Shown here one piece after another: positions 2,909 to 64,000 of a stretch of DNA of 64,000 bases. Each line of letters begins with the position of its first letter. Within the stretch, counting starts at the first letter, position 1. The DNA comes from a bacterium. Its GTDB lineage: Archaea; Nanobdellota; Nanobdellia; Pacearchaeales; GW2011-AR1. Under the pieces are notes generated by a model. It made no database searches. It had not been told where the DNA came from and saw nothing but the letters and a program-made list of their open reading frames with translations. The DNA is taken from positions 116,397 to 180,396 of the forward strand of contig DAITPU010000001.1 of NCBI GenBank assembly GCA_036833455.1. The letters run 5' to 3'. A program made the translations under genes and the position numbers.

Positions 2909-2963
2909 TAAGACAACGAGCAAAATAAAATTCAAGAGAAAATAAAAATGGAAGGAACAGACG

Positions 2964-3224: not shown

Positions 3225-3295
3225 GTAGTAGAGGAATCCCACTAGTTAATATTTTTAACTAGTAATATTTAGAAAATCACAATCTATTTATGCTA

Positions 3296-6070
<2,775 letters not shown>

Positions 6071-6184
6071 GTCACTAAAAGCCTCACATGTTATTTTCTA
6101 AATAACTTCCTCTACTACTTATCCTTTGTTTTTGTTAACCATTACCACAATAATTCTTATAAACTAAAATTCTTTTTTCAAATA

Positions 6185-11700: not shown

Positions 11701-12780
11701 ATGCCAAATACTGAAAGCCAAATTTCTGAATTAAGACAAATAGATCAGGAACTTGAAGAAATTATAAAAAAACAATCTGCAAAAATTAAGGTCGTTGGAA
11801 TTGGGGGTGGAGGAAATAATTCCTTAAATAGAATGGGAGAGATTGGAATAAAAGGGGGAGAATTAATTGCTATGAATACTGACGCCCAAGATTTATTATA
11901 TACTAATGCCAATCATAAAATTTTATTGGGTAAGGAATTAACTCAAGGACTCGGAGCTGGAAGCAATCCTAAAATCGGAGAAGAAGCAGCAAAAGAATCC
12001 GAATCAGAAATAAAGAAAAAACTTTCTGGGGCAGACATGGTCTTTATAACTTGCGGTATGGGGGGAGGAACAGGAACTGGAGCCGCACCCGTTGTTGCGA
12101 ACATTGCAAAAAAAGCAGGAGCGTTAACTATTGGTGTTGTTACAATGCCCTTTACAATCGAGGGCCAAAAAAGAATAGAAAATGCAACTTATGGTTTAGA
12201 AAAAATGGAAGCTCTCACAGATACATTAATAGTTATTCCAAATGACAAATTATTAGAATTAGCTCCAGATTTACCTTTACACACTGCATTCAAAATTGCA
12301 GATGAAATACTAACAAACGCTGTTAAAGGAGTTACTGAATTAGTAACAACATCTGGATTAGTTAATTTAGATTTTGCAGACATCCAAGCAGTTATGAAAG
12401 AAGGGGGAGTTTCTCTAATTGGAATGGGGGAATCGGACACAAAACAAAGAGCAATAGATGCAATAGAAAAAGCCATGCAAAATCCTCTACTTGATGTGGA
12501 CATTTCGGGAGCAAAAGGTGCCTTAATAAACATTGTTGGAGGACAAGACATGAGCCTTGACGAATGTAAAGAAATAATTTCAAGAGTAGGAAATAAATTA
12601 AATCCCCAAGCTAAAATGATATGGGGGGCTAAAATTGCTCCAGATATGGACAGAGCAATAAGAGTTTTATTAATTGTTACAGGAGTTAAATCCTCTCAAG
12701 TTCTAGGAGGAGGCGAAACAATTGAATCTTTAAAACATAGAGAAATTGAAGAAGAATTAGGGATTGAATTTGTTGAATAA
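11701..12780 (+). CDS. ftsZ: cell division GTPase FtsZ (paralog 1)
   Basis: GGGGNN, GAGSNP (T4 loop) and [15 protein letters not shown] tubulin signature. Confidence 0.9.
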
Positions 12781-17275: not shown

Positions 17276-18355
17276 TTAACTCCAAACGTCAATTCCCAAA
17301 TCAGACATTTCTCTTGACCTAGGCATAGTTCTTTCTTCAAATTCTTTTCCCAAAACATAAGGAGATTTAACTCCAGTCATAATTGTAATTACCCTTACTT
17401 TTCCAACGAAATCTTTAGCAATTCTAGCTCCAATTATAACTTGTGCATCGTTACTCAAATTCTCAGAAACAGTTCTACCAATCACATCAAATTCTTCTAA
17501 CTTCAAATCTGGCCCACAAGTTATGTGTATCAAAGCACCAGTAGCACCCTTATAATCCACGTCAAGTAGAGGATGTGTTAGGGCTTGCTTTACTGCTTCA
17601 GTTACACGGTCTTGCGCGTCTGATTCTCCAATACCTATTACTGCAACATCTCCGTTTTTCATAATAGCGGAAACATCAGCATAATCTAGGTTAATTAAAG
17701 AAGGCAATGTAATAGTTTCTACAATACCTTTAACCATTGTACTAACAAGTTCGTTAGCAACAGCAAAAGCTTGTTCAAGAGGAAGTTGACCTGCAATATC
17801 TACTAATCTATTGTTATCAAGAACAATACAAGTATCAGTAGCTTCTCTAAGTTCAGCTAAACCAAATTCAGCTTTATCAATTCTAGCTTTTTCAGATTCA
17901 AATGGCATTGTAACAACACCAATAACAACAGCACCAGTCTCTCTAGCTAATTGAGCAATTACTGGAGCAGCTCCAGTTCCTGTTCCTCCTCCCATCCCAG
18001 CAAGAACGAAAACCATATCAGAACCACTAACAGCTTTCTTTAAATCCACAACTGCTTCTTTAGCAGCCTCTCTACCTTTTGTAGCTTTACCTCCTGCACC
18101 AAGACCCCTAGTCAATTCTTTACCAATAAGAATTTTCTCATCAGCCTTAGTAACACTAAGGTGCAACGCATCTGTATTAGCTGCATAAACTGTAGCACCA
18201 TTAATTCCTTTATTAAAAAGCCAAGTAATCATATTACACCCACAACCTCCAACTCCAACTACCTTAATTGAGGCTTTACCTGCTCTAAGTTCGTCAAAGT
18301 TAATACTATGAGTTTCTGCATTTTGAATAGCTTCTTTCGCAAAATCAAGTACCAT
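17276..18355 (-). CDS. ftsZ: cell division GTPase FtsZ (paralog 2)
   Basis: GVGGCGCN, GAGGKATKGREAA and [15 protein letters not shown] tubulin signature. Confidence 0.9.
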   Translation of the reverse strand: MVLDFAKEAIQNAETHSINFDELRAGKASIKVVGVGGCGCNMITWLFNKGINGATVYAANTDALHLSVTKADEKILIGKELTRGLGAGGKATKGREAAKEAVVDLKKAVSGSDMVFVLAGMGGGTGTGAAPVIAQLARETGAVVIGVVTMPFESEKARIDKAEFGLAELREATDTCIVLDNNRLVDIAGQLPLEQAFAVANELVSTMVKGIVETITLPSLINLDYADVSAIMKNGDVAVIGIGESDAQDRVTEAVKQALTHPLLDVDYKGATGALIHITCGPDLKLEEFDVIGRTVSENLSNDAQVIIGARIAKDFVGKVRVITIMTGVKSPYVLGKEFEERTMPRSREMSDLGIDVWS

Positions 18356-19135: not shown

Positions 19136-20203
19136 ATGGTTCAAGATTTAAATTCAAAATTGGAAGAAGAACCTCCTTCTATTAGAAATTTTAAAAGACT
19201 ATCCATTGGTCTTTCTTTCAATGCTAAAAAGAATAATAGTTCTAAATTTGGAGATAAATATGCCGAATTTGACGACATAAAAACTATCCATTCAATAAAA
19301 TCTGCAATTGAATCTGCAGGACACCAAGTTATTCTTTTAGAAGCAAATAAAACTTTTATTAAAAAGGTAACAAGAAAAAAAATTGATTTAGTTTTTAATA
19401 TAGCAGAGGGTATAGAAGGAAAATCTAGAGAGTCTCATGTTCCATCAATTTTAGAAATGTTACAAATCCCCTACACTGGTTCAGGAGTGCTTACTCAAGC
19501 TTTAACATTAGATAAAAGAAGAACAAAAGAAATTTTAAGTTATCATAAAATTCCCAATGCAAAATTTCAATTAATTGACAAAAACAAATTTATTTTAAAC
19601 AAAAATTTAAAATTCCCTTTAATAGTCAAACCGAATTCAGAGGGATCAAGTAAAGGGATAACAAATAACTCTTTGGTCCAGAATAAAAAAGAATTGAATA
19701 AACAGGTAAAAAAAATTCTTAATGATTATTCTCAAGAAGCTCTAATTGAAGAGTATTTACCTGGAAGAGAATTTACTGTGGGGATGATAGGGAACCAAAA
19801 ACCTAAAGTTTTGCCTATAGTTGAAATAAATTTTAACCATTTACCTCCAGAAATTCATAAATTTGATTCATATGAGGCAAAATGGATTTACGATAATCCA
19901 AACTCTAATGAAGATCCATTGATTTGCCCTGCAAAAATAAATAAAAAACTTAAAAAAGAAATAGAAAATATATGCCTTCAAACATACAAAATATTGGATT
20001 GTTTAGATTTTTGCAGAATTGATTTAAGATTAGACTGTAAAGGAAAACCAAATATTATTGAAGTTAATGCGCTCCCAGGATTGATTCCAGATCCAAAAGA
20101 AAATTCAAGATTCCCCAGATCCTGTTTTACTCAGGGACTAACCTACAACCAAATTATTTTATCTATTTTAGATAGTGCTATAAAGAGGTATAATCTAAAA
20201 TGA
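19136..20203 (+). CDS. D-alanine--D-alanine ligase-family ATP-grasp enzyme (paralog A)
   Basis: N-domain FNIAEGIEGKSRESHVPSILEMLQIPYTGSGVL. ATP-grasp FPLIVKP, EEYLPGREFTVG, CRIDLRLD, IEVNALPG. Confidence 0.7.
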   Translation: MVQDLNSKLEEEPPSIRNFKRLSIGLSFNAKKNNSSKFGDKYAEFDDIKTIHSIKSAIESAGHQVILLEANKTFIKKVTRKKIDLVFNIAEGIEGKSRESHVPSILEMLQIPYTGSGVLTQALTLDKRRTKEILSYHKIPNAKFQLIDKNKFILNKNLKFPLIVKPNSEGSSKGITNNSLVQNKKELNKQVKKILNDYSQEALIEEYLPGREFTVGMIGNQKPKVLPIVEINFNHLPPEIHKFDSYEAKWIYDNPNSNEDPLICPAKINKKLKKEIENICLQTYKILDCLDFCRIDLRLDCKGKPNIIEVNALPGLIPDPKENSRFPRSCFTQGLTYNQIILSILDSAIKRYNLK

Positions 20204-21189
20204 AAATTGGATTAATTCATTGTGAAGGGGATTTTAAAAAATCTTCTCCTTTTGATTATGAAGGAAGGAAAAATATAGGTGATGCAGTGGAAATTGCATT
20301 AAATAACTTAAAAATGAATTATATAAAAATTCCAGCTAACAAAAAAATGTTTAAAAGTTTAGAAAAAAACAGAGTAGATTTAATATTTAATTCAGCCGAC
20401 GAGGGATTTAATATGAACACTCACTTAGAAGCTCAAATTCCTGCTTTTTTAGATATGTTAAATATTCCTTATACTGGATCTAATTATCTTACATTGGGTT
20501 TGTGTAATGATAAAATAAAAACAAAAGAGATACTTAAAGCAAATGGGTTACCTACTCCTAATTTTTTGGTAATAAAGAATAAAATTTCAGAAAATTTTGA
20601 AATTAAAGGAATAAAATTTCCCTTGATAATTAAACCTTCTAAAGAAGATGGAAGTATAGGAATAAAGATTGATTCTGTAGTTAATACAAAAAAAGAGATG
20701 ATAAAAAAAATAAATGAAGTTTTAGAAAAGTATAATCAACCTGTTTTAGTAGAAGAATTTATAGAAGGCAGAGAGATATACATAGGAATTTTAGGCAGAG
20801 ATAAAATAGAAGTTTTGCCCCCTACTGAAATAAAATTTAACCTTCCTAAAGGTTACAAAAATTTTTTGCCCTACGAGGCAAAATGGGAAGAGAATAGTTC
20901 ATACTATAAAGGAACTATTGCAACTTGCCCTGCAAAAATAGAGCAAAAATTATTTTCAAAATTAAAGGATGCTGCGATTAAATCATATAAAATTTTTAAT
21001 GTGAGGGATTATGGAAGGATAGATTTTAGAATTGATAAAAAAGGAAAAATTTTTATTTTAGAAGTGAATCCAAATCCAGATTTATCTAGAGAATCTGGAA
21101 TTGCTTTAATGGCAAAAAGAAGAGGAATGGAATTTGAAGATTTAATTAAAAAAATAATAAGTTATTCTAAACAAGATGAAATCAATTGA
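20200..21189 (+). CDS. D-alanine--D-alanine ligase-family ATP-grasp enzyme (paralog B)
   Basis: FNSADEGFNMNTHLEAQIPAFLDMLNIPYTGS, FPLIIKPS, EEFIEGREIYIG, GRIDFRID, LEVNPNPD. 4-nt overlap with the upstream gene. Confidence 0.75.
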   Translation: MKIGLIHCEGDFKKSSPFDYEGRKNIGDAVEIALNNLKMNYIKIPANKKMFKSLEKNRVDLIFNSADEGFNMNTHLEAQIPAFLDMLNIPYTGSNYLTLGLCNDKIKTKEILKANGLPTPNFLVIKNKISENFEIKGIKFPLIIKPSKEDGSIGIKIDSVVNTKKEMIKKINEVLEKYNQPVLVEEFIEGREIYIGILGRDKIEVLPPTEIKFNLPKGYKNFLPYEAKWEENSSYYKGTIATCPAKIEQKLFSKLKDAAIKSYKIFNVRDYGRIDFRIDKKGKIFILEVNPNPDLSRESGIALMAKRRGMEFEDLIKKIISYSKQDEIN

Positions 21190-21718
21190 AGGAGAAAATT
21201 TAATTTTAAAACAAGTTGAAGAAAAAGATGCTGAATACATTTCTAAATGGTTTTCAGATAAGGAGCAAAATAAATACATGAGTACTTTTGTTAGGACTAG
21301 AGATCATCCTATTGAAAAAATAAGAGAAGAAATTATAAATTCTAATGAAAATTTTGAAAGATTGTTTATGATTTATCTAAAAGGATATTGTAATCCAATA
21401 GGCCATTGCGGTATAGATGATTTAGACTTACACGATAAAAGAGGAGAAATTTTTTTTATAATTGGAGAAAAAGAATTTCAGGGAAAAGGTTACGGAAAAG
21501 AAACTGCAAAACTTCTTTTAAAACTTGGTTTTGAAAAATTAGGATTAAATACCCTTTTTGCAACTGCAACTTTAGAAAATGTATCTTCAATTAAAACATT
21601 AGAAAAAGTTGGATTTAAATATATTGGGATAAGAAGAGAATATAATTTTATAAATGATAAATATTTGGATGAAATTTTATTCGATATAACAAGGAAGGAT
21701 TACGAAAAAAATGAATAA
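21176..21718 (+). CDS. GNAT-family N-acetyltransferase
   Basis: GNAT motif A region IGEKEFQGKGYGKETAKLLLKLGFEKLGLNTLFA; overlaps both neighbours. Confidence 0.65.
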   Translation: MKSIEGENLILKQVEEKDAEYISKWFSDKEQNKYMSTFVRTRDHPIEKIREEIINSNENFERLFMIYLKGYCNPIGHCGIDDLDLHDKRGEIFFIIGEKEFQGKGYGKETAKLLLKLGFEKLGLNTLFATATLENVSSIKTLEKVGFKYIGIRREYNFINDKYLDEILFDITRKDYEKNE

Positions 21719-22805
21719 AAATAATATGAATAACAAGAAAAATAGAGATTTGAATTATTTGCATTTACCAAGAGCTATTTCCGATATAGATTCTCTAAAA
21801 ATTTCATTATCTAAAAAAGATATAGAATTAACAAAAGAAGAAATAGAAAATATAAAAAAAGTTATAGAAAAATATCCAATGAGAATTAATTCTCATTATC
21901 TTTCTCTAATTAAAGAAAAAAATGATCCCATCTGGAACCAATGTATTCCTAAAATTGAAGAAATAGAAGAAACTGGGGGTGAAGAAGATCCCTTAAAAGA
22001 AGAGGGAGAAGTCCCGTTTTTAACTCATAGATATCCAGATCGATGTTTATTAATTGTATCTAACACTTGTGCAATGTATTGCAGATTCTGCACTAGAAAA
22101 AGAAAAGTTGGTGAAGCTATCAAAAATCCTTCAATTGAGGATATAAGAAAAGCAATTAAGTATATAAAAAACCACAAAGAAATAAGGGACGTAATAATTT
22201 CAGGAGGAGATCCTTTCCTTCTAGGAGATAAAACTATTGAAAAAATATTAGTTGAATTAAGACAAATTCCTCACATAGAAATGATTAGAATTGGAACAAG
22301 GGTACCCTGCGTAATGCCTGAAAGAATTACTCATGAATTATGTAGTATTCTAAAAAAATATAATAAACGGCCTATTTTATATCTTAATACTCACTTTGAA
22401 CACCCAAATGAAATAACTGAGCAAGCTAGGCTTGCTTGCGAGAGATTGATTGATTCGGGCATACAATTAGGAAATCAAAGTATAGTCTTAAAAGGGGTTA
22501 ATGATGATCCAAAAATTTTCAAAGAATTGAATCAAAAACTTCTTGCAATTGGGGTAAAGCCATATTATATTTACCAACCAGATTTAGTTAAAGGAACTTC
22601 TCATTTCAGAAATAAGGTGGAAAAAGGCCTTAAAATAATTAAAGGGTTGAGGGGACACACAAGTGGAATGGCCGTACCTCATTTTGTTATAGATTCTCCT
22701 GGAGGAGGTGGAAAAATACCCCTTCTCCCAAAATACTCCACTATAAATAAAGATGGATCAGTTGATATGATTAATTATCAAGGAAAGAAGTTTAAGTATT
22801 TTTGA
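21711..22805 (+). CDS. kamA: lysine 2,3-aminomutase (KamA/AblA/EpmB family radical SAM)
   Basis: CAMYCRFCTRKRK (CxxxCxxC), ISGGDPF, PYYIYQPDLVKGTSHFR, typical KamA length. Confidence 0.8.
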   Translation: MNKNNMNNKKNRDLNYLHLPRAISDIDSLKISLSKKDIELTKEEIENIKKVIEKYPMRINSHYLSLIKEKNDPIWNQCIPKIEEIEETGGEEDPLKEEGEVPFLTHRYPDRCLLIVSNTCAMYCRFCTRKRKVGEAIKNPSIEDIRKAIKYIKNHKEIRDVIISGGDPFLLGDKTIEKILVELRQIPHIEMIRIGTRVPCVMPERITHELCSILKKYNKRPILYLNTHFEHPNEITEQARLACERLIDSGIQLGNQSIVLKGVNDDPKIFKELNQKLLAIGVKPYYIYQPDLVKGTSHFRNKVEKGLKIIKGLRGHTSGMAVPHFVIDSPGGGGKIPLLPKYSTINKDGSVDMINYQGKKFKYF

Positions 22806-23502
22806 ACTCTTTTCTTAAATATCTATTTAAGAGAAAAGGGTACTTCCTACATTTATGTTCTATTATACTTGATGAATGGTGTGCTTCAGGATATTTTAAT
22901 CCTTTCAACATTAAATTTCTTTCATGGACCTCATGAAGTAAAACAAACTTTCTTTCTCTCTTTGATAAATCATCATCTAACCATATTTCTCCTTTTGGAA
23001 CAAAATTATAAACTTTATCATGACCTCCCTCAGTAAAGTCAATAAAATAAAAATCACGAACAAGTTCTCCATTAACAACCCAAACTTTAAGATTATCAGA
23101 GCTATATTTTTTTAATAATTTTTTATGAATTCCTTTTAAAAGATTTTTTCTATAATTTTTTTTATACTTTAAAAAATAAGAAGATTTCATTCTTTCTTTT
23201 TGCTCTGAAGAATCTGCTTTTATTATTGCTTTTTTATAATTCATTCCTCTTGACATTAAAAAATATTCAGTAATTAAATGATTTATATAAAAAGTGAATT
23301 CCCCTGGAGAAAATTCTTTATCTAACCAAAATTCTTTTTTTGGAATAAACTTAAATCTAAAATGTTGGCCAAAATTAGTAAATTCTTCATTTAGATTTTT
23401 TCTTACATAAGATCCATCCACTATAAAAACTTCAAATTCTCCAACAGAGATTAATTTAGAAAGATAAGGTTTTCTCATTATTCCTTCTCCAAAATTTCGC
23501 AT
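22792..23502 (-). CDS. hypothetical protein with internal tandem duplication of about 75 aa; second copy carries HEVHE (HExxH)
   Basis: Repeat 1 FEVFIVDGSYVR...FIPKKEFWLD...INHLITEYFLM. Repeat 2 LKVWVVNGELVR...FVPKGEIWLD...LLHEVHERNLM. Confidence 0.4.
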   Translation of the reverse strand: MRNFGEGIMRKPYLSKLISVGEFEVFIVDGSYVRKNLNEEFTNFGQHFRFKFIPKKEFWLDKEFSPGEFTFYINHLITEYFLMSRGMNYKKAIIKADSSEQKERMKSSYFLKYKKNYRKNLLKGIHKKLLKKYSSDNLKVWVVNGELVRDFYFIDFTEGGHDKVYNFVPKGEIWLDDDLSKRERKFVLLHEVHERNLMLKGLKYPEAHHSSSIIEHKCRKYPFLLNRYLRKEFKNT

Positions 23503-36708: not shown

Positions 36709-37794
36709 TTAAATCCTTTTATTTAAAACTACTTTTTCCCTTAAATTATAAATTTCTTCTCTAAAAAAACTAACCATCGTTTCACTTTCTAAAAAATCTA
36801 AAAGTTTTTGGTTGCTTGCAGAAAGAATTTCTTTTAAATTATCAAAATTCCCAATTAAAATATCTACATATCTATCCGGAAGATTTGTTTTTCCTAAAAT
36901 TCGAATTCCCTTAGGAGAAATAGGTTTATCATGAAGCTCTTCAAATAATAATCTTAAAATATTCATTGGTTCCAATAAAAATTCAAAATCCATATTTTCA
37001 AGTATACTCAAGGAAATTGTTGAAGTTTGACCAAGATAATCTCTAAGAATAAGTTCCTCTTCTCTTTCTAATCCGCTAGTTAATTCTTTGGCTCTCATTT
37101 TAATAATAAATCCCTCTCTACCCAATTCAACAAGATATCTTTCAACTATGGCTGCAATTCTCTTTATGATTTCTATTCTTTGTAAAACTAAACAAACGTT
37201 ATTCATTCTAACATTTCTTTGAAGTTCAAGGGAATTTAAATTTTCTAAAAAACCATCATAAACATCCCTTTGCTTTTCTAAAACTTGCAAAGTTTCAGAA
37301 ACTCTTCTCAATATCTCAGAACTACTTTCTAATTGATAATTAATCTCTCCTTGATAAAGAGAAATTTTATTCTTTCTTTCTGAAACAGCAATTGTTACCG
37401 TATTAGCTTGTTTAGCCGTTCTTTCTGCAGATTTATGCCTTGTTCCTGTTTCTTTCGTATGGATTCCAGAAGCTGGAACTAAAAGAGTATTAGCAGAAAG
37501 GATATCTTTTGCATCTTTGGATAAAATTATTGCTCCATCCATTTTAGCAAGTTCTACTAATTTTTGGGAAGTGAATTTGGAATTTATTCTAAACCCCCCT
37601 TCAACAATTCCTTCTAAATTCCCGTTATCAAAAACAATCAATGCCCCCATTCTTGCCCTAAGTAGATCATCTAAGGCACTTCTAAGACTCGTTCCTGGAG
37701 CAACCATTCTAAGAACATCAATAAAATCTTTTTCTTTTGAAACTTCTTTATTCGAAGATAAAATCTCTTCAATTTCAATAATTTCCTCTTCCAT
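36709..37794 (-). CDS. disA: DisA-type diadenylate cyclase (c-di-AMP synthase)
   Basis: DAC domain motifs DGAIILS and GTRHKSAERTA, long helical linker, C-terminal HhH-like KGIRILGKTNLPDRYVDILIGNF; 361 aa. Confidence 0.75.
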   Translation of the reverse strand: MEEEIIEIEEILSSNKEVSKEKDFIDVLRMVAPGTSLRSALDDLLRARMGALIVFDNGNLEGIVEGGFRINSKFTSQKLVELAKMDGAIILSKDAKDILSANTLLVPASGIHTKETGTRHKSAERTAKQANTVTIAVSERKNKISLYQGEINYQLESSSEILRRVSETLQVLEKQRDVYDGFLENLNSLELQRNVRMNNVCLVLQRIEIIKRIAAIVERYLVELGREGFIIKMRAKELTSGLEREEELILRDYLGQTSTISLSILENMDFEFLLEPMNILRLLFEELHDKPISPKGIRILGKTNLPDRYVDILIGNFDNLKEILSASNQKLLDFLESETMVSFFREEIYNLREKVVLNKRI

Positions 37795-49155: not shown

Positions 49156-49965
49156 ATGATAAGAAATGTTTTAGAAATAAAAGAAAAAATAATAAATTTT
49201 TTAGAAAAAAATGGACCAACAATACCTATTTATATCTCTAGAGAAATTGGTATGGATTTAATGTTTACTTCTGCATTTTTATCTGAATTAATTTCTGAAA
49301 AAAGAATAAAATCCACTTATCTTAGAGTTGGGAGCTCTGCGATTTACTTTTTAGAGGGGCAAGAAGAAAAATTAGAAAGTTTTTCAGAACACTTAAAATC
49401 AAAAGAAAAAGAAGCTTATGAAAAATTAAAAAAAGAAAGATTTTTGCAAGATGATGATCAAGAACCTGCTTTGAGAATTGCGTTAAATTCAATCAAAGAT
49501 TTTGCAATTCCCATTAAAAAAGAAAATAATAAATTAATTTGGAAATATTTCTTAGAAAAAGATTCTTCTAAACAAAAAGAAGACAAAATTGAAAAAGTAA
49601 AAAAATTAAAAAATGAAAAAAAATTTCCTGAAAAAAAGAAAAAAGAAAAAAAAACATCCGAAAAAAAAGAGGAAAAGTTCCTAGAAACAATAAAAGAAAA
49701 ATTAAAAGAAAATAATGAAGAAATTGAAGAAATCATGGGATTAAATAAAGATATGATAATCTTAAGAGTAATCAAAGGAAAAAATAAAAGAATATTAATT
49801 GTTCTAAATAAAAAATTAATTTCCGAAAAAGACATTTTAAATATTTTTAAAAGAGTCGAGAATTTAGAGGAAAAATATTCTATTTTAATTAAAGGGGAAC
49901 CTTCAAAAAAAATAAAAACCTTGTTTAATGCATTCAAAAATCTAGAATCTATTGAATCTACATAA
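49156..49965 (+). CDS. hypothetical protein, N-terminal winged-helix-like domain plus K/E-rich coiled coil
   Basis: ORF. Confidence 0.3.
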   Translation: MIRNVLEIKEKIINFLEKNGPTIPIYISREIGMDLMFTSAFLSELISEKRIKSTYLRVGSSAIYFLEGQEEKLESFSEHLKSKEKEAYEKLKKERFLQDDDQEPALRIALNSIKDFAIPIKKENNKLIWKYFLEKDSSKQKEDKIEKVKKLKNEKKFPEKKKKEKKTSEKKEEKFLETIKEKLKENNEEIEEIMGLNKDMIILRVIKGKNKRILIVLNKKLISEKDILNIFKRVENLEEKYSILIKGEPSKKIKTLFNAFKNLESIEST

Positions 49966-52511: not shown

Positions 52512-52584
52512 TTTAAAAAAAAGCGCGGACCGGGACTCGAACCCGGGAAAATTCGCTCTGCAGGCGAACGCAGTAGCCGCTGTG
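52512..52584 (-). tRNA. tRNA-Cys (anticodon GCA)
   Basis: Minus-strand read GCGCGGA...TTCGC/CTGCAGA/GCGAA...CCGGG/TTCGAGT/CCCGG/TCCGCGC-T. Confidence 0.8.
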
Positions 52585-52626
52585 CCATCCGCGCATACTA
52601 ATTCAATAAATTAAGAACTTTTAAAG

Positions 52627-53466
52627 TTATTCCCAATAAAAATTTAAACCAGCAGCTTTTTTTATTAAGCCTTTTCTATCCTCAGGTATATCTTTTCTCT
52701 TAGAATTCTTCAAGTAATTTTTTATTTTCTTTTCTTTTTTTTCTAATGAAATATTCGGATTCGTGTGTGGACCTCCAATACACCCTCCTTCACAAAATAA
52801 ACAATCAACAAATCTAATTTTAGATTTTTTATTTTTCAAAAATTTTTTGACGTTTTTTATTCCATCTATGCAAATAGATTCTTCTTTTTTAAGAACATTT
52901 TTTAGATGCGCTGTTTTAGAAAGAGCTCCACTTAGAGGGTATATTTTGGTATAATCGTTGTAAAATTTATCAAAAACTCTTTTTCTGGAAAACAAATTAT
53001 AAAATATTTTATTTTTTTCGACTAATAATTTAAACTCCTTAAAATCTATAAAATAATCCACCTGTCCTCTTTCTTGGATTTCCAATTTTTTAAAATTACA
53101 GGGTGAAAGAAAAACCACCTTATGTTCGGGAAAATGTTTTTTGCAAATTTTTGCCATTGCAATCATTGGGCTATCTATCTTTATCAAATTGTTTCTAAAT
53201 TCAGGAAAATTAGTTTTAACAAAAGAGACTATTCCTGGGCACGTAGAAGAAATAAAAAAACCTTTTTTATTTTTAAGGAGAGAATGATATTCTCTATTTA
53301 TCATTTTAGCTCCAAATGTAACTTCTACTACCTTATCAAACCCCAATCTTTTTGCTTTATATATTATTTCTGAAGGACCAAAATCACAAATAAAACTAGG
53401 GGCAACCATTAAAATAAACTTTTCCTTAAGCGGAAACTTAAATTTTAAAAAAGGATTCATTTTCAT
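52627..53466 (-). CDS. [FeFe]-hydrogenase H-cluster-domain-only protein (minimal HydA-like/Nar1-like)
   Basis: H-cluster motifs ISSTCPG (L1), FLSPCNFKKLE (L2), DCLFCEGGCIGGP (L3), plus N-terminal VAPSF...LGFDKVVEVTFGA. Confidence 0.6.
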   Translation of the reverse strand: MKMNPFLKFKFPLKEKFILMVAPSFICDFGPSEIIYKAKRLGFDKVVEVTFGAKMINREYHSLLKNKKGFFISSTCPGIVSFVKTNFPEFRNNLIKIDSPMIAMAKICKKHFPEHKVVFLSPCNFKKLEIQERGQVDYFIDFKEFKLLVEKNKIFYNLFSRKRVFDKFYNDYTKIYPLSGALSKTAHLKNVLKKEESICIDGIKNVKKFLKNKKSKIRFVDCLFCEGGCIGGPHTNPNISLEKKEKKIKNYLKNSKRKDIPEDRKGLIKKAAGLNFYWE

Positions 53467-53519
53467 TAAGATAATTAGAATGCAAAACTTTTAAAGGTTA
53501 TGAAATAAAATAATTATAT

Positions 53520-53594
53520 GCTCCGGTAACTCAGCCTGGATAGAGTGTCAGCCTTCTAAGCTGAAAGTCGCAGGTTCAAATCCTGTCCGGGGCA
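53520..53594 (+). tRNA. tRNA-Arg (anticodon TCT)
   Basis: GCTCCGG...TCAGC/CTTCTAA/GCTGA...GCAGG/TTCAAAT/CCTGT/CCGGGGC-A. Confidence 0.8.
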
Positions 53595-53599
53595 TTTTT

Positions 53600-54926: not shown

Positions 54927-55304
54927 TTGAATTTCTGTTACATGAAATTAGGAAGAAAGATAACTGGCGGAAGGTATGTTAAAAGAAGTAAGAAAAAGAA
55001 AGACGAGAGACAAGGACAAAGAAGAATAGTTAAATTGGGAGAAGAAAAAAGAAAAACAAAAAGAATTAAAGGTGGGAACGTTAAAACATTTTTATTAAAA
55101 AGTAAGGAAATTAATTTAGAAGAAAACGGAAAAATAAAAAAAACTCAAATAAAAAATGTTATTGAAACTCCTTCAAATCGTTTCTTTGCGAGACAAAATA
55201 TTTTAACAAAAGGAACTATAGTAGAAACAGAATTAGGTAAAGCAAAGATAACAAATAGGCCTTCTCAAGAGGGAAATATTAATGGAACTTTAATAAAAAA
55301 TTAA
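54927..55304 (+). CDS. rps8e: 30S ribosomal protein S8e
   Basis: GRKITGGRY...RIKGGNVK...ETPSNRFFARQNILTKGTIVETELGKAKITNRPSQEGNINGTLI. Confidence 0.75.
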   Translation: MNFCYMKLGRKITGGRYVKRSKKKKDERQGQRRIVKLGEEKRKTKRIKGGNVKTFLLKSKEINLEENGKIKKTQIKNVIETPSNRFFARQNILTKGTIVETELGKAKITNRPSQEGNINGTLIKN

Positions 55305-57274
55305 TTGTTTATCTTAATGGGTTCCCATATAACTGTTATAGGAGATTTATTTGGGCTTATATCATAATTTTTTCTTTCTCTTAGGGGAGTTCTAGATCCG
55401 GGACTATCATAAAAATTAGCCAAATATCTTGATCTATCTGCCCAACTAATAAAAACCATATTATGACCTCCCGTGCTTGAACCCCTATTTTGATTATAAA
55501 CTTGGACTAAATCTCCTGGTTTTAAGTTATATTGAGATCTTGGGCAATCATAACATTTACCTGTTGAATCTATTTTACATCCGCAAGAAGAACAAGAAGG
55601 TTGTGATCTTTCCTTGCTTCCTTGAACAGAGTAAACACATCTAGGATTTAATTTTAATTCATCGTAAATGGAACGAACAGAAGTATAACAAGTATCTCCA
55701 CAAACAACCCCTATTTTTTTCTCGGCAAGATCTAAAATTGAAGGAAATTTGACCTGAGACTCAGAAGATTTCCTATACAAAGCCCCCCCAAATAAATAAT
55801 CTGTTTTTTGAATTCCAGATTTATCTTTAAAATTGGATAAAATCTCAGTTTCAACTTTTTTATAGTTCCCAGAAACTTTGAAAGGGAAATTTCCAAAATT
55901 AAAAATTACTTGTTCATTGGAATTGGATTTTCTTTCATAAAAATTTACGATGGATGAATCTTCTATATTTTCTATTTCTAATTTTGAAACAGAATTTTCA
56001 TTTGATATCACTTCAATGAAATTTCCTTCTTTAGCTAGTATTAAAATACCTTTTTTTGCATTAATTTCTCCTTGCGTCTCTAAATAAGAATCTAAATCAA
56101 AATTTCCAGAAGAATAATCCCTTTGTATAGAATTAATAAAATCTATATAAGGGCCATTGCTTTCTTTTCTTTCTTCTTTTAAAGAGGCTAATTCTTTTTT
56201 CAAAAAATCTTCTAAATCAAAATTAAGATTAGAATCATAGTTTTGTCTTAGTTTTTTCCTAAAATAACTAGAATATCCTAAAAAGTCTCCGCTTTCAACT
56301 ATGCAACTCTGAGAAAAACCAAAACAATCCTGTTTATTTTTAAAAAGACGAGTTTCTTTTTCTACAAAATACGTCAATATTTTTTTAGCACTTCTTCCTT
56401 CAGAAACAGTAAAGAGAGTATATTTGGATTTATTTCCTAAAACAACTCCGTTTTTATCTAATTTTAAAAATCCATCTATTTCTGCATATTCCTCTTCAGA
56501 AATAATTCTAACAAATTTATCTGCATACAATCCATTTTTAATAATGATTTCTTCTCCTCTTCTTTCTATTTTAAAATCCCCTTTATAATCCTCTCCCAAG
56601 ATATTTGCTCTTCCTGAAGACATGCTAAAATTTAATTTTGAATTTTCACCTATAATCACCTCTCCTAAATAAAAAAAGGGAATCCCTTCTTCTGATCCAA
56701 AATGATCCACAAATGAATTTGAAATATTAGTTCCATCTTCAAGCATAATTTTTCCAGAAGGAAAAATTTTAGCCCCCTTAAAAAGAGGATTTTCCAAAGG
56801 AAAATTTGTTGAGTCCTCTCCCTTTGTGGTTATCATCCTTCTTAGATTATCTCCAGATTCAATATAATATTGGACAATTTCTCCTCCTAAATCTTCGATT
56901 TCAAATGAGTTAAACCAAGTTTTTTTTATATTGGGATTTTCATTTAAAACGGAAAGTTCTTCTCTAGCTAAAAGATCTAATTTAATTAAAATTGAATCTG
57001 GGACTTTATCAAGATCCTCTTCTTTAGATAATAACTCTTCTAAAAGTTTTAAATCAAATTGTATTAAATCATTAGATTTTATATTTGAAAGATTTAATTC
57101 TCCTACTAAGAAAGTTTTTTCGAAGTCCGCCCAAGGAATTTCTTCTTCAGCAAAGATTAAGGAGAAATTTAAAATAAATAAAATTCCTAAAAAGACTATA
57201 AAAAAATTACGTTTCATTTTTCTCCCAAAAATATTTATTTGCAAAGGAATAAATAATTTGTTCTTTACTATCAT
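55301..57274 (-). CDS. large secreted protein with C-terminal NlpC/P60 (CHAP-clan) cysteine peptidase-like domain
   Basis: N-terminal signal/anchor. C-terminal Cys-rich region then KPGDLVQVYNQNRGSSTGGHNMVFIS (PGDLVFF...HVGIY-like). Confidence 0.45.
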   Translation of the reverse strand: MIVKNKLFIPLQINIFGRKMKRNFFIVFLGILFILNFSLIFAEEEIPWADFEKTFLVGELNLSNIKSNDLIQFDLKLLEELLSKEEDLDKVPDSILIKLDLLAREELSVLNENPNIKKTWFNSFEIEDLGGEIVQYYIESGDNLRRMITTKGEDSTNFPLENPLFKGAKIFPSGKIMLEDGTNISNSFVDHFGSEEGIPFFYLGEVIIGENSKLNFSMSSGRANILGEDYKGDFKIERRGEEIIIKNGLYADKFVRIISEEEYAEIDGFLKLDKNGVVLGNKSKYTLFTVSEGRSAKKILTYFVEKETRLFKNKQDCFGFSQSCIVESGDFLGYSSYFRKKLRQNYDSNLNFDLEDFLKKELASLKEERKESNGPYIDFINSIQRDYSSGNFDLDSYLETQGEINAKKGILILAKEGNFIEVISNENSVSKLEIENIEDSSIVNFYERKSNSNEQVIFNFGNFPFKVSGNYKKVETEILSNFKDKSGIQKTDYLFGGALYRKSSESQVKFPSILDLAEKKIGVVCGDTCYTSVRSIYDELKLNPRCVYSVQGSKERSQPSCSSCGCKIDSTGKCYDCPRSQYNLKPGDLVQVYNQNRGSSTGGHNMVFISWADRSRYLANFYDSPGSRTPLRERKNYDISPNKSPITVIWEPIKINN

Positions 57275-57956
57275 AATTAAAAATTAAAAGATAAACTACA
57301 TCTTCTTCAAAATAAAAAGTGTCAAAATAAAAATTATTTTTTTCTGATAAATCTGCCAAAAATCCCAATGGAACAAAAGAAGGATTTTTTTCTTGTTCAA
57401 ATAAAAAGTCCTTAATTAAGAGATAATTTCCATAAAAAGGGGAATTAAATTCAAACTTAAAATTTGTTATTTTAGTTGAAGCTTTTTCATTCTTTAAAGT
57501 TAAAGGATAGTTAATGTCTAATATAATTTTATTTTTAAATAAATTTGATTTAACAGAAATTTCTTCAAAAGAGATTGTGTAATCTGAATTAGTGATATTT
57601 TCCACACAATAGATTAGATTATTTTCTAAATAATTCGAAATGCTTCTTTCTAAAATAGTTTTATTTGGAGAAAAATCTTCCTTAATATACCAATAATAGG
57701 GTATCTTTCTTCCAAGAAAATCTCTACTTAAATTAGGAGGAGAATAATACCCTCCTCTTAGCCCTATCTCTTCTAATCCCTCAAAAAGAACTTTTTCAAC
57801 ACAAAAAGAAATTTGATTGGTTAAGGAATTTATTTTTGGAGAAAAAATATTTTTTATGTTTAATTCTGCTCTAAAAGAAAATAATAAAATAAAAATTCCA
57901 ATTAATAATATTGAAATTATTATAAAAATGCTTATTTGAGCTTTTTTATTCAACAT
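57207..57956 (-). CDS. secreted/membrane-anchored hypothetical protein
   Basis: N-terminal hydrophobic anchor; 249 aa. Confidence 0.3.
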   Translation of the reverse strand: MLNKKAQISIFIIISILLIGIFILLFSFRAELNIKNIFSPKINSLTNQISFCVEKVLFEGLEEIGLRGGYYSPPNLSRDFLGRKIPYYWYIKEDFSPNKTILERSISNYLENNLIYCVENITNSDYTISFEEISVKSNLFKNKIILDINYPLTLKNEKASTKITNFKFEFNSPFYGNYLLIKDFLFEQEKNPSFVPLGFLADLSEKNNFYFDTFYFEEDVVYLLIFNYDSKEQIIYSFANKYFWEKNET

Positions 57957-59167: not shown

Positions 59168-62100
59168 TTATCCGCAATGGATAAATCCAAAATAATCTGA
59201 ATCGGATTTTACTTCAGAAATTTCAACTTCAGCTTGAGATACACTATCCTTTAAATTCCCCCCTATTAAACTAAGAGAATTACTCTTAATTTCAACTACT
59301 ATATCGCAGTGAGATTTTCCAGACCTAACTGAATCGTAATTTGTCGGACAACCCTCTTCTCTACACTTACAAATTATATCTCCTTCTTGAATTTTATCAA
59401 TCTCGGAAATCCTATAGGTCTTACAACCATAATTAGAAGGATTATCTCTTAAAGTTGAAAAATATCTTGCATGTGCAGAATCGAATGGAAAATTAAAATT
59501 TGATTCTTTTACAATACTTGAAATAAATGCTGCAGACCAAGCAGTACCTCTACAATCCCAATTTGAAAGCAATGCATCGTCATAATATTTTTTTAAATAA
59601 GTTTTTCCTAACTCACTACATTCATCTAATTTTCCATACTCCCATTTTGAATATTCTCTAAGAGCAATTGTAGCAATTTTATTGCTCCCTCCTCTGGAAG
59701 ATTTTTTTACAAACTCTTGTGCAAAATTCATTACTTTTTCAACGTAATCTGTATCTGATCCAGAGCCACATCCCCACCCATTATATCCTCTAAGAGCTGC
59801 ACGCCACTCAGTATATCCTGCGTATTTAGGGTAAGTTTTTATGCATTCATCTACCAATTTTTTAAAACTTGAACTTCCTTTCAGATAAGTCGAAGATGCT
59901 TTCACACCAAATTTATACTCATTATATTTTTCAAGTAGAATCCTAGCTCCAACTTCTATACTTAATTCAGGATTGTTTAATAATTGATTTTTACAATCAT
60001 TCTCATTTTTAACCAAACCATATTTTCCACACCATACATTTGGCATTACTTGTGTTATTCCATGAGCCCCTCTGTTTGAAACGGCATTAACATTACATCC
60101 AGATTCTTGATTGGATAATGCAACTAAAATTGAAAAAGGAACTCCTGTCTTTTCAGAAACTTTAAAAAAGAGATCTTTATAATTTATACAACGAGAATTC
60201 ACCGAAGACCAATCATACTCTTCAAGAGAAATTTCTTCTTCAGGTAATATTTCTTCTTCCCCTTCTTCAGGAGGAATTGTAATTTCTGAATCTTCTATTT
60301 CAAACTGATCGTAATTAAATATCATTGCAGATCCAAGATAAAAATTCTTTTCATTTCCTAATCTTAAAACTAAAGATTCTATTATCTTTGGCATTTCTAT
60401 TTGCTTTTTTCCAGAAATCTTTTTTTCAATAGTTCCACTTTTCTTCCAAGATTTTTCATCATAACTCCAAAGCCATTCTCCAGAATCAGGAGAAGTGTTT
60501 GGTCTTTCTCCTTCATATCTAATAATATTTCCATATCTAAAATAAATTTTTTTTATGTCCGGTAAATCTTCTATAACAAAAATTCCATCGTGACCCATGT
60601 TAACTCCATTATTAACTCCAACTAAATCTGGATATGTATTTCCTGGCCTCAATGATCCTAATAGCCATTTCCCCTCTTTATCTTCAATAGTTCTATCTAT
60701 TAACAAAGTTAATCCTTCTAAATAATTTTTTCCTTTTATCTTATTTAAATAATCTTGGTTTCTTTTATTTAGATCTGGATTTATATATTGGCTCACATTT
60801 TTCCAGTTATTTTCTCCCCAAATTCTCCAAAACCATTCTCCTTGTGAAAATGAATACATAATGTTATTGGGTTTTAGAGTAGTCAATCCATCTTCGAAAA
60901 CTAAAACGGAATAGCTATAAATAGGAAGAATTTTATCAATTTCTTCTTCAGGTAATTCTTCTTCCTTTTCTTGTTTGTCTGGATCTACAAGTATTGGCTC
61001 ATCTAATAATTTAAAAGACTCTTTAGCCAGATCTCCGAATGCAATTCCCTTTAAAAGATACAAATATCCTCTCTGATTAGAATAATAAACTTTGCTCAAA
61101 ATTCCATCAATTCTTTTTATTCTTTCCATTGGATGAAGGTTTCCCTCCATAATCTCCTTAACAAATTCTTCAAATTCAAATTTCTCCATATAGTTTCCTT
61201 CTTTTCTTAATTTTTCAATAAAATTTTCAGTCAAATTTTTTAAAGCAGTATCGGAAGTAATTTCAAACTCAGCAGCCTGTTTAATGCTTTCAGTATCCAC
61301 CCAACATTTAATATTTGGATCTCCACAATAACCAACTTCCATCCACCTCCCAGAAAGAAGTGAATTTCCTGGAACTTGGGAAGAACAGATTCTAATTAAA
61401 CCATTCTTATAAACCTCAGTATTTAGGACGTTATCAATTCCTTCTTGTATATTTGGATTCAATAAATTATAAGCACTCATACTTCCAGAGATACATTCCT
61501 TTTCTGTCTTTATATCTTCTTTCGTTGATTGAGAAAGCAGATATTGGTCTTTCAAATAATTAGCTGCAAAACTTGATGTGACTTGTTTAAATCCACATTT
61601 TTCTAAATTATTTATTCGAACACAAAGTTGCTTAAATCCGGAAGCAGCAGTAAAATCAATAGTTTCAGAAGCATATTTTCCTGCAGCGATATATCCAGAT
61701 CCAACATTTCTTATTCCAAATTGAGTATCTTGATAATATGAACTCCCCTCACTTCCCTTTAAATAAACTTGGTAATATGCCCCTTGATCATTTCCAGCAA
61801 AGATATGATAATAAACCTTATACTGACTCATAGGAGGAACTGTTGCACTAGAATATTCTATCTCTTCAAATCTTGCATTAAACTGAGAAGGACTGTCAGG
61901 TTGAACTAAAGTACTAAGCGATCCAAATGAAGAAGGATAAACTACCGAAACAAAATTTTTACAAACACTCGCTCCAATTTGATCTGTACTCCTGGCTTTA
62001 AATGCATTAAAAGAATTTACTCCATAAAAATTTACAAAGTAATTTATTGAATCTTCTGTATTTTTCCAAGCATTTTGCAATGTTAAATATTCTCCTCCTC

Positions 62101-64000
62101 CTCGAACATTTTGATTCAAAATAACTTTTGCTATTTTAGAAATTCCTATTTCTGTTAAAGGTTTTGCATCTCTCCATAAAAATTCACAAAGATAAATACT
62201 ATAAATTTCATCACAAACCCCTACCATTTGACCGCTCTCCACACTTGTTTCAAGACAACTTTGGTAGGAGTCTAAAACACTAATTAAATTATCCAAACCT
62301 GCATGAACTCCTGAAAGGCAAATAGGAAAAATAATTCCTTCCTTATAATTTGGAAAACACAAAACTAAACTACCTATGATTCCAGAGCCAATTACATTTT
62401 GAACAGGATAGGCACCCCCGAAATCGCACCTAGTATTAGGGCACATCACGGGATCACAAACATTAAATAGAATTTGGCAATCTTTTGGAGACATAAAATC
62501 CGTACAAGATATAAGCGGATCATTACTTTTAGGAGAACCTACATTTATATTTGAATTTAAAATTTTTACACTCCTTGCTCCAGATTTATAATTACTTTTA
62601 GCATCTTCTATTGCCTTTATTGCATTTGAAATTAATTCTTCCGAATCTTTTTTATCTAATCCAGGGAATTGATTATATGCTTGGCCAGTTCCAAGATTAA
62701 TCATTTGACAAATATCATCTGAAATGCTTAACCCAAATTCTTGTAATCCATTTTTTCCAACATTACAAACATAAAAACTATTAACAAAAGTAGAATCGCT
62801 GTAACTTGCTATCTCCCCAAAAACAGGAATTGTTTGTTTTATTGAAACATACCATCCCTTCTTTGTGTTGAAAGGAACTATTGCTGGAAGACCCTTATAA
62901 GGCTCAGTTTCATAATAAGTTACTCTTGGATCCAGATAAACATTATTATAACTAGTTGAATCATATTCTTTAAAAGTTAATCTTTCTATTTCTTCTAATC
63001 CTCCCGATACTTGTACTTTATCCAAATTATAAACTAAAGGTTTACCTATTTCATCTCGAAGTAAAGTGTAAATATCCCCTCCAAGATTTCTATTTAATAA
63101 AACCACGAAGGACTCCGAAGATTTTTGATTAACTACATAAGCAACAGGAGTATTTTCTGGAAACCCATTGAAATTTTTCCAATCTATGGAATAAAGAGTC
63201 AAACCCTTATAAGGAAGCTCTTTTAAATTTTCAGGAATAACATAATTCACTTGAAGAGAATTTATTTTAATCTTTTCTAATTGAGAATTTAATTGTTTTT
63301 TATTTTTTCCATTTATTTGTAATTCTTTCAAAAGAGAATACAAGCTTACATTATAACCTAAATTATCTGGATTTTTTTTAACTAAATTTGAATACAGCTC
63401 TATAGATCGTATTTTTTCTATATCAAAAATTCCATTTTCCCAAGCTTCAACATTGAGATACATTTTTACTTCAGAGAGATTTATACTTTCAGAAGAAACC
63501 TTTGGATTAATCATCGAAAAACCAAGATGGTCTAAACTATCTTTAACTTGTAAAGAATAAACTTCCACAAATTTTTTGTTATTTATTATTTTGTCTCCTA
63601 AAGGATTTTTTATATACATTCCATCTTGATTTCTTATTTCTCTTAATAAAATATTTTGATTATTTATTGCATCGGATATTTCTTTTACTTCTGCATCAAT
63701 ATCTTTTGAATTGTCTAAAAGACATTCTTCCACACTGGCATAATTCTTCTCATTTACCATCAAGCTACATTTCTTTATCCACCCTTCTTCTCCTCTAAGT
63801 ACCTCTTGCCTTGCCAAGGTATCTCCTTTAATTCCCCCCAAAATATTTTTGGCTGCTAAAAAACCTCCTGTAGCAAAACAGGCATATTTCATATTTTCCA
63901 CAACTTTTCCCAATCCGTCATTAATGTCTTTGATCTGGTTTATTAAACCCTCTGTTTTGTCTGCAACCTTTTTAGCTTTTTCTGGAGAAAGTTGAATTGC
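59168..64000 (-). CDS. giant (over 1,600 aa, truncated by the window) protein with a lytic transglycosylase (SLT) domain followed by a C-terminal NlpC/P60 peptidase-like domain
   Basis: SLT motif ALSNQESGCNVNAVSNRGAHGITQVMP. C-terminal WDCRGTAWSAAF...QEGDIICKC...SHCDIVVEI (Cys...GD...H triad). Reading frame stays open upstream of the track start (TTG at 63913) to position 64000. Confidence 0.6.
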   Translation of the reverse strand, partial: AIQLSPEKAKKVADKTEGLINQIKDINDGLGKVVENMKYACFATGGFLAAKNILGGIKGDTLARQEVLRGEEGWIKKCSLMVNEKNYASVEECLLDNSKDIDAEVKEISDAINNQNILLREIRNQDGMYIKNPLGDKIINNKKFVEVYSLQVKDSLDHLGFSMINPKVSSESINLSEVKMYLNVEAWENGIFDIEKIRSIELYSNLVKKNPDNLGYNVSLYSLLKELQINGKNKKQLNSQLEKIKINSLQVNYVIPENLKELPYKGLTLYSIDWKNFNGFPENTPVAYVVNQKSSESFVVLLNRNLGGDIYTLLRDEIGKPLVYNLDKVQVSGGLEEIERLTFKEYDSTSYNNVYLDPRVTYYETEPYKGLPAIVPFNTKKGWYVSIKQTIPVFGEIASYSDSTFVNSFYVCNVGKNGLQEFGLSISDDICQMINLGTGQAYNQFPGLDKKDSEELISNAIKAIEDAKSNYKSGARSVKILNSNINVGSPKSNDPLISCTDFMSPKDCQILFNVCDPVMCPNTRCDFGGAYPVQNVIGSGIIGSLVLCFPNYKEGIIFPICLSGVHAGLDNLISVLDSYQSCLETSVESGQMVGVCDEIYSIYLCEFLWRDAKPLTEIGISKIAKVILNQNVRGGGEYLTLQNAWKNTEDSINYFVNFYGVNSFNAFKARSTDQIGASVCKNFVSVVYPSSFGSLSTLVQPDSPSQFNARFEEIEYSSATVPPMSQYKVYYHIFAGNDQGAYYQVYLKGSEGSSYYQDTQFGIRNVGSGYIAAGKYASETIDFTAASGFKQLCVRINNLEKCGFKQVTSSFAANYLKDQYLLSQSTKEDIKTEKECISGSMSAYNLLNPNIQEGIDNVLNTEVYKNGLIRICSSQVPGNSLLSGRWMEVGYCGDPNIKCWVDTESIKQAAEFEITSDTALKNLTENFIEKLRKEGNYMEKFEFEEFVKEIMEGNLHPMERIKRIDGILSKVYYSNQRGYLYLLKGIAFGDLAKESFKLLDEPILVDPDKQEKEEELPEEEIDKILPIYSYSVLVFEDGLTTLKPNNIMYSFSQGEWFWRIWGENNWKNVSQYINPDLNKRNQDYLNKIKGKNYLEGLTLLIDRTIEDKEGKWLLGSLRPGNTYPDLVGVNNGVNMGHDGIFVIEDLPDIKKIYFRYGNIIRYEGERPNTSPDSGEWLWSYDEKSWKKSGTIEKKISGKKQIEMPKIIESLVLRLGNEKNFYLGSAMIFNYDQFEIEDSEITIPPEEGEEEILPEEEISLEEYDWSSVNSRCINYKDLFFKVSEKTGVPFSILVALSNQESGCNVNAVSNRGAHGITQVMPNVWCGKYGLVKNENDCKNQLLNNPELSIEVGARILLEKYNEYKFGVKASSTYLKGSSSFKKLVDECIKTYPKYAGYTEWRAALRGYNGWGCGSGSDTDYVEKVMNFAQEFVKKSSRGGSNKIATIALREYSKWEYGKLDECSELGKTYLKKYYDDALLSNWDCRGTAWSAAFISSIVKESNFNFPFDSAHARYFSTLRDNPSNYGCKTYRISEIDKIQEGDIICKCREEGCPTNYDSVRSGKSHCDIVVEIKSNSLSLIGGNLKDSVSQAEVEISEVKSDSDYFGFIHCG

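Follow-up and report, generated by a model that had tools for sequence, protein, structure and literature searches.

Group E [FeFe] hydrogenases are ultraminimal enzymes of DPANN archaea (Nanoarchaeota, Iainarchaeota) that consist of the H-domain alone and average 286 residues (Greening et al., Cell 2024, PMC11216029). Modeled members include the enzymes of CABMGN01 sp902385635 (Nanoarchaeota) and of "Ca. Forterrea multitransposorum"; the latter, Fm, was purified as a 33 kDa protein with 4.2 Fe per protein, and Fourier-transform infrared spectroscopy showed that its H-cluster was assembled with synthetic [2Fe]adt (adt, azadithiolate). In film voltammetry Fm was bidirectional with a clear bias toward H+ reduction, and H2 was evolved; no specific activity of group E is reported there (PMC11216029). 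Here we describe hydA, a gene in a 64-kb stretch of contig DAITPU010000001.1 (the window, by which we mean that whole stretch), whose product HydA is assigned to this group, a family characterized in 2024 and thus already known. With a probability a little under 0.8, we read HydA as a group E [FeFe] hydrogenase that evolves H2 with electrons from ferredoxin and so serves as a fermentative electron sink, with protons bypassing the relay used by group A.

Several systems beyond group E bear on this reading. TmHydS (group C) is the closest characterized homolog of Fm, and groups B to E form a superclade (PMC11216029). For TamHydS, of group D, mutagenesis has been used to test a proposed alternative proton route by way of E252 and E289. 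A 2026 preprint describes the characterized non-group-A enzymes as considerably less active, and the proton pathway of CpI, the Clostridium pasteurianum enzyme, as unconserved in groups C to G.

The hydA Gene and Its Family

Domain content, ligand mapping, integrity of the cofactor site, family membership and gene neighborhoods all come from the present analysis. The hydA open reading frame (ORF), called and translated from an ATG start (Table 1), encodes 279 aa (32.6 kDa, pI 9.8) with 8 Cys in total. The original prediction had described this ORF, leaving its strand unstated (it is minus), together with the L1, L2 and L3 motifs SSTCPG, SPCNFKKLE and DCLFCEGGCIGGP, all of which were found. It had also described the protein as free of N-terminal ferredoxin-like domains, and Pfam indeed gives Fe_hyd_lg_C as the sole domain, at residues 16-233 (profile positions 2-245 of 245; E 4.5e-42, far beyond chance), with no Fer4 or small-subunit domain in HydA. 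The best NCBIfam match is to the C-terminal half of the group B1 model at 135 bits, far from that model's cut-off of 450, with the group A model behind it at 60 bits. The identical protein sequence occurs in three independent assemblies (ERZ724098, SRR6007444, SRR26719225).

Over its full length HydA is 54% identical (E 6e-107) to the hydrogenase on CABMGN010000008.1, a contig tied to the GTDB name CABMGN01 sp902385635 by naming convention, and clusters with group E by this identity. It has the size and domain content of the group (279 aa, H-domain alone, no CxxCxxCxxxC) and all of the H-cluster Cys, and its host is archaeal by rRNA, housekeeping genes and DPANN-labeled relatives. In common with the CABMGN01 and Fm enzymes are the H-domain-only build of ~280-290 aa, one [4Fe-4S]H site with all cluster Cys, non-canonical proton-transfer residues, a DPANN host, and the lack of HydE, HydF and HydG (the maturases) in the genome context. 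Nothing of substance distinguishes HydA from its group E relatives; its lineage is without the adjacent 2-oxoacid:ferredoxin oxidoreductase (OFOR) seen in about half of them. Every feature flagged in the original prediction, including the small size and the missing relay Cys, is a published group E trait.

The family is large. More than 1000 homologs of HydA were found in a large protein collection, the top 120 of which are ~270-330 aa long (mostly 275-300) and 54-68% identical to HydA, in addition to the query's own cluster; named entries among these 120 are few, and are mostly Pacearchaeota, Nanoarchaeota or archaeon. When one genome per GTDB species was scanned, 400 stretches with a HydA relative were found, and the best 80 of the 400 are almost all labeled as Pacearchaeota, Woesearchaeota, Nanoarchaeota or archaeon metagenome-assembled genomes (MAGs). 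With 400 species genomes matched, the rarity in archaea that had been supposed for [FeFe]-hydrogenase homologs does not hold. Three close relatives lie on contigs labeled as Fusobacteriaceae, Paceibacterota and "bacterium" MAGs (L003, JAFGUR010000262.1; L071, DAOTCN010000001.1; and L037). The first of these contigs is 2.6 kb long and carries the archaeal tRNA-Arg context described below. The three bacterial labels are probably binning or labeling errors, and not bacterial group E genes.

Active Site and Fold

HydA was mapped onto CpI by phmmer alignment, in which the chain numbering is CpI numbering, and by a profile from 40 family members. In the phmmer alignment C76, C123, C225 and C229 fall on the CpI ligands C300, C355, C499 and C503, so the complete set of H-cluster Cys foreseen in the original prediction is present, and T75 pairs with the relay Cys C299, again as foreseen. 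T75 is not a sequencing slip, since its codon, ACG, is at least two substitutions from TGY (Cys). The family profile equates A22-P23-S24 with CpI A230-P231-S232.

Conservation was scored on an alignment of 79 sequences, one per species genome: HydA and 78 relatives. No change is seen in any of the 79 at the four Cys, K126 (CpI K358), E129 (E361), S99 (S323), P100 (P324) and D221 (E495), and the equivalents of A230-P231-S232 are invariant or nearly so. Position 75 (C299) is V in 33 sequences, P in 17, T in 15, A in 14 and Cys in none. Position 95 (S319) is I, A, V, L or M (Ile in HydA), position 121 (M353) is S, A or T (Ser in HydA), and position 223 (M497) is L, T or N (Leu in HydA). CpI R286 falls in a gap; E282 aligns with S62 or L63, and E279 with E59 or Y60, depending on the alignment used, so that the latter equivalence is ambiguous. 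Neither the group A relay C299-E279-S319-E282(-R286) nor the pair of group A active-site Met residues, M353 and M497, is found in HydA. By these alignments no member of the family has the group A relay, and there is no selection for a proton-carrying side chain at C299.

The AlphaFold2 model of HydA, made from a 40-sequence alignment, has a mean predicted local distance difference test score (pLDDT) of 84.3 and a predicted TM-score of 0.86, a confident [FeFe] hydrogenase fold. In a Foldseek search of the PDB the top matches are all [FeFe] hydrogenase catalytic subunits (HydABC HydA, CpI, CbA5H), with TM-scores, normalized to the query, of 0.71-0.77 at ~20-23% identity. CpI and Chlamydomonas reinhardtii HydA1 (group A, M1) share with HydA this fold, the same four ligands and the same contacts to the CN and CO ligands (K358, S323, P324, A230-P231-S232), and HydA1 is likewise without accessory clusters. 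HydA is smaller, by ~85 residues against the CpI H-domain and by 178 against HydA1 (457 aa), and differs from CpI in having Thr at C299, Ile at S319, Ser or Leu at E282, Ser at M353, Leu at M497 and a deletion of R286.

The pLDDT drops below 50 solely at residues 169-175, inside a long loop, 152-180. This low-confidence loop holds the family-specific motif FYNDYTK, which is invariant in the 40 closest relatives and may be part of a lid or of an alternative proton route. Residues ~150-195 align with CpI weakly (E 0.05) or not at all, whether by phmmer, family profile or fragment query; where they do align, the register is at odds with a helix predicted at 181-188, and no residue-level match to TamHydS E252, S249 or D265 was obtained by way of CpI. 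Between 176 and 188 there is no acidic residue.

Resemblance to Sensory Hydrogenases

A library of 1.84 billion representatives, clustered at 50% identity, was searched exhaustively with HMMER, and 35 proteins reached E <= 1e-30. The best 13 are mostly 278-316 aa long; a few of the 35 are longer (352-750 aa, and one of 4122 aa), and below this set most matches are multi-domain proteins of 500-750 aa. The 4122-aa protein (P0136) has seven hydrogenase domains together with flavodoxin and flavin adenine dinucleotide domains. Seven longer proteins were checked (P0149, P0150, P0154, P0157, P0160, P0161, P0172), and all are of HydS type, 540-755 aa long, with N-terminal 2x[4Fe-4S], the H-domain and a PF04060 Fe-S domain followed by PAS, sigma-54 activator, GGDEF or histidine kinase domains. 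They are 28-33% identical to HydA, and their residue at the C299 position is T, A, S or P, never Cys. In four of them (P0149, P0160, P0161, P0172) the H-domain is fused to a sigma-54 activator, GGDEF or histidine kinase domain, beyond PAS alone; this points to a putatively wide variety of H2-sensing output modules among the nearest longer relatives. The ultraminimal family is thus the bare catalytic core of a lineage that also yielded sensory hydrogenases, in agreement with the superclade of groups B to E.

These relatives raise the question of whether HydA itself is a reduced form of the HydS-type H2 sensors or regulators (groups C and D), a sensory role being one of those favored in the original prediction. 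The active site, too, speaks for this idea. At the C299, M353 and M497 sites TamHydS has A137, S191 and L291 where HydA has T75, S121 and L223; in both enzymes the group A relay is largely absent, and an acidic residue is kept two before the Leu (E289 in TamHydS, D221 in HydA). The second sphere of HydS enzymes in general (a small residue at C299, Ser or Gly at M353, Leu at M497) is thus present in HydA, as a resemblance in mechanism and not in membership. Unlike TmHydS and TamHydS, HydA has no 2x[4Fe-4S] domain, no C-terminal [4Fe-4S] domain of the PF04060 kind, no PAS domain and no output or signaling domain, and so has nothing to signal with. No conserved regulator adjoins hydA in the related loci, its neighbors being catabolic or housekeeping genes, and Fm is biased to H+ reduction, unlike TmHydS (PMC11216029). 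We give a sensory HydA next to no credence, and retain ferredoxin-dependent H2 evolution as the reading of these data.

Gene Neighborhoods

For the window gene and its 78 relatives we clustered the ORFs of the 10 kb flanking it on either side, and found two frequent contexts. In 40 of the 78 related loci hydA lies directly downstream, on the same strand, of genes for a POR/POR_N fusion (508 aa) and a thiamine pyrophosphate (TPP)-binding beta subunit (271 aa), which together make a two-subunit OFOR (for example L078:8221-9036 and L053:6839-8365). The delta (ferredoxin-like) subunit of OFOR is not in sight at these loci. An AMP-forming acetyl-CoA synthetase is encoded close to hydA in 17 loci and a 60-aa 2x[4Fe-4S] ferredoxin in 5. 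An association of hydrogenase with OFOR has likewise been reported (PMC11216029), and the position of OFOR directly upstream in so many loci fits ferredoxin-driven H2 evolution.

The second context is that of the window and of 29 related loci, CABMGN01 included, in which hydA follows genes for RNase Z, an Sm protein and S8e. Here hydA usually lies between tRNA-Arg(TCT) and tRNA-Cys(GCA), as it does in the window (29 related loci, L003-L073), and the CABMGN01 locus has in common with the window the order RNase Z, tRNA-Arg, hydA, tRNA-Cys. The housekeeping block of the window lineage continues into YjbQ and GlyRS, and the orientation of tRNA-Arg flips between genomes. The OFOR and RNase Z contexts never co-occur, and largely track clades of a neighbor-joining tree of the family. 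The arrangement tRNA-Arg, hydA, tRNA-Cys is old and stable, and hydA was not inserted there recently. We considered whether the flanking tRNAs mark a recent horizontal transfer and rejected this, since the block is kept across relatives with 52-64% protein identity to HydA.

HydA might instead serve mainly in uptake, oxidizing H2 (for example from a host or community) to reduce ferredoxin. The partners to which DPANN archaea attach, or among which they live, produce H2. The window holds no reductant-producing partner gene, and Fm works in both directions in film voltammetry (PMC11216029). The bias of Fm toward H+ reduction disfavors this direction, however, and the OFOR and acetyl-CoA synthetase neighbors of the relatives indicate disposal of reductant. 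A mainly uptake role is in our estimation highly improbable, and H2 evolution is kept as the preferred direction.

Maturases and the Cofactor

The original prediction noted no HydE, HydF or HydG in the window, and this stands. A screen by CxxxCxxC and P-loop motifs, followed by NCBIfam, found no HydE/F/G and no HydF-like GTPase in the 64 kb. The radical-SAM motif CxxxCxxC occurs in two window ORFs alone, one encoding TYW1 (TIGR03972, 321 bits, above cut-off) and the other a KamA-family aminomutase (TIGR00238, 311 bits). Nor were HydE, HydG or HydF found among the radical-SAM or GTPase genes within 10 kb of the 78 relatives; the screen reached over the window and the 10 kb flanks, and would be escaped by a motif-less or more distant maturase.

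An enzyme without maturases could be no hydrogenase at all: for want of HydE/F/G the cell may form no [2Fe] subsite, and HydA may be a plain [4Fe-4S] protein, an electron carrier or a Nar1-like Fe-S factor. Nar1 (NARFL) belongs to eukaryotic cytosolic Fe-S assembly and has a hydrogenase-like H-domain with four conserved Cys, and the organisms that carry it are not known to have HydEFG. Besides the screens above, this explanation has on its side that most archaeal genomes with [FeFe] hydrogenases lack the maturases, the closed Forterrea genome included, and that all activity data need synthetic cofactor (PMC11216029). The residues of the cofactor pocket are hard to reconcile with it. Nar1-like proteins have an N-terminal Cys cluster and have lost the residues that bind the [2Fe] subsite. 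HydA, from an archaeal host, has no such ferredoxin-like N-terminal cluster, and its equivalents of K358, E361, S323 and P324 are invariant and those of A230-P231-S232 invariant or nearly so; conservation of these [2Fe]-only contacts across relatives ~50-60% identical is hard to explain otherwise than by a [2Fe] subsite. The Nar1-like role that had been suggested is therefore not upheld. The repeated linkage to OFOR in relatives fits an electron sink, and there are eukaryotes that lack maturases yet have an active enzyme (cited in PMC11216029). We regard a [4Fe-4S]-only HydA as improbable, and return to the group E hydrogenase.

Proposed Function

H-cluster binding and H2 evolution are taken from the literature on another member, Fm; the electron donor, the direction in vivo, the proton route and the way in which the cofactor is made are what we infer. 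C76, C123, C225 and C229 would bind the [4Fe-4S]H cubane, with C229 bridging to the [2Fe] subsite, and conserved residues (A22-P23-S24, S99-P100, K126 and E129) would line the pocket that holds this subsite. Because HydA is without accessory clusters, electrons would have to pass straight to the cubane from a low-potential donor outside the protein, most probably ferredoxin that OFOR has reduced; they would leave as H2, serving as a fermentative electron sink. With C299 replaced by Thr (V, P, T or A in relatives), S319 by Ile and R286 by a gap, protons would not pass by the group A relay; they would take a different route, or come largely from solvent, in a condensed, more exposed active site.

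Much of the original prediction is retained in this proposal: a truncated H-domain-only homolog with the full ligand set, without C299 and with no maturases nearby. What falls away is its conclusion that a sensory or Nar1-like role is to be preferred over that of a standard H2-evolving enzyme, given the 54% identity that places HydA in group E and the bias of Fm with [2Fe]adt toward H+ reduction. Low-activity catalysis, which it also allowed, is possible.

Five points weigh against our reading. The group E placement draws on pairwise identity and on a quick neighbor-joining family tree built without group A to G references. The group E activity data are those of Fm alone, after artificial maturation. 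HydE/F/G were found neither in the window nor in the 10 kb flanks of the 78 relatives, so that a holo-enzyme in vivo is itself inferred. Neither a ferredoxin nor an OFOR gene lies in the 64-kb window: the ferredoxin motif CxxCxxCxxxC is found in none of its six frames, and tblastn gave no match in the window to OFOR and acetyl-CoA synthetase, with the proteins of the relatives as queries; the coupling is thus borrowed from relatives. Finally, the HydA second sphere, with Ser at M353, Leu at M497 and no Cys at C299, is that of the slow, putatively sensory group D.

A more detailed proposal, which we put forward tentatively and as rather doubtful, is that group E enzymes including HydA reach the holo state without HydE/F/G, that the adt amine is protonated via a family-specific route replacing C299, and that the enzyme docks directly on OFOR where the two are linked. 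Maturation free of HydEFG could proceed through an archaeal route or with a precursor scavenged from the host. Candidates for the proton route may be D221, Y60 and the FYNDYTK loop (168-174), which the apo model shows as disordered. Where hydA follows a delta-less two-subunit OFOR, the hydrogenase might take electrons straight from the OFOR beta subunit by docking.

Features of the Window

The coordinates of hydA, its motifs and the flanking tRNA genes are collected in Table 1.

Table 1. Features of the hydA locus, in window coordinates.
Feature	Coordinates	Strand	Remarks
hydA, H-domain-only group E "ultraminimal" [FeFe] hydrogenase (assigned)	52627..53466	(-)	ORF, Pfam, AlphaFold2, Foldseek, CABMGN01 identity
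L1 SSTCPG, residues 73-78	53233..53250	(-)	T75 = CpI C299; C76 = C300, cluster ligand
L2 SPCNFKKLE, residues 121-129	53080..53106	(-)	S121 = M353, C123 = C355, K126 = K358, E129 = E361
FYNDYTK, residues 168-174, family-specific motif	52945..52965	(-)	invariant among close relatives; inside loop 152-180
L3 DCLFCEGGCIGGP, residues 221-233	52768..52806	(-)	D221 = E495, L223 = M497, C225 = C499, C229 = C503
tRNA-Cys(GCA)	52522..52594	(-)	32 nt 3' of hydA stop, then T8 run
tRNA-Arg(TCT)	53519..53595	(+)	upstream flank of the tRNA-Arg / hydA / tRNA-Cys block

A TATA-box-like TTTAAAA can be read in the sequence at 53489..53495 (-), 23-29 nt 5' of the hydA ATG, and the same CTTTAAAAG element stands 5' of both hydA and the downstream tRNA-Cys. 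The TTTAAAA element suggests that hydA has its own archaeal promoter, with a transcript that would be leaderless or have a very short leader.

The window has a GC content of 29.8%, an archaeal 16S-tRNA-Ala-23S operon at 1341-6098 and seven tRNAs. Among its housekeeping genes are those for ribosomal proteins S2, S8e and S17e, the Sm protein, TFB, TFIIE-alpha, eIF1A, eIF5A with deoxyhypusine synthase, two FtsZ paralogs, GatD/GatE, six aminoacyl-tRNA synthetases, RNase Z, tRNA-splicing endonuclease, TYW1 and TYW3. The host is an AT-rich DPANN archaeon of the Nanoarchaeota/Pacearchaeota type.

Some other genes of the window were noted in passing. At 19136-22805 (+) lie four head-to-tail, partly overlapping genes, encoding two D-Ala-D-Ala-ligase-like ATP-grasp proteins, a GNAT acetyltransferase and the KamA-family protein; the last matches the lysine 2,3-aminomutase model TIGR03820 at 431 bits, under its cut-off. 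The cluster resembles a beta-lysine cassette of the ablA/ablB type that has additional ligases, unexpected in so reduced a genome. A giant ORF at 59168-63913 (-), running off the window end, has >1581 aa in the window, with SLT and DUF2272 domains; the gene called on the ENA contig (L001:1-4299) encodes 2335 aa. In an episymbiotic archaeon such a protein may act at the cell surface or in interaction with a host. The two FtsZ paralogs and a DisA-type diadenylate cyclase (DAC and DisA-linker domains) are found at 11701-12780 (+), 17276-18355 (-) and 36709-37794 (-), in what is a very small archaeal genome. ORFs of 657, 249, 269 and 236 aa at 55301-57956 (-), 49156-49965 (+) and 22792-23502 (-) have no family match, the first three in NCBIfam (their precomputed Pfam record is also empty) and the fourth in Pfam.

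Significance

The hydA gene of the window adds a further example of the smallest enzyme scaffold known to produce H2. Such a scaffold matters as a minimal H2 catalyst and for understanding the disposal of reductant by DPANN archaea with reduced genomes. How the enzymes mature without HydEFG, and which way their protons travel, are questions already raised by the description of the group (PMC11216029). To these the window makes modest additions: the loss of the relay Cys is family-wide, with the C299 position unconstrained (V, P, T or A); the second sphere is that of the sensory group D, and an invariant family-specific loop is a candidate for the proton route; and hydA occupies two mutually exclusive, clade-structured contexts, one linked to OFOR and the other between two tRNAs in a housekeeping block.

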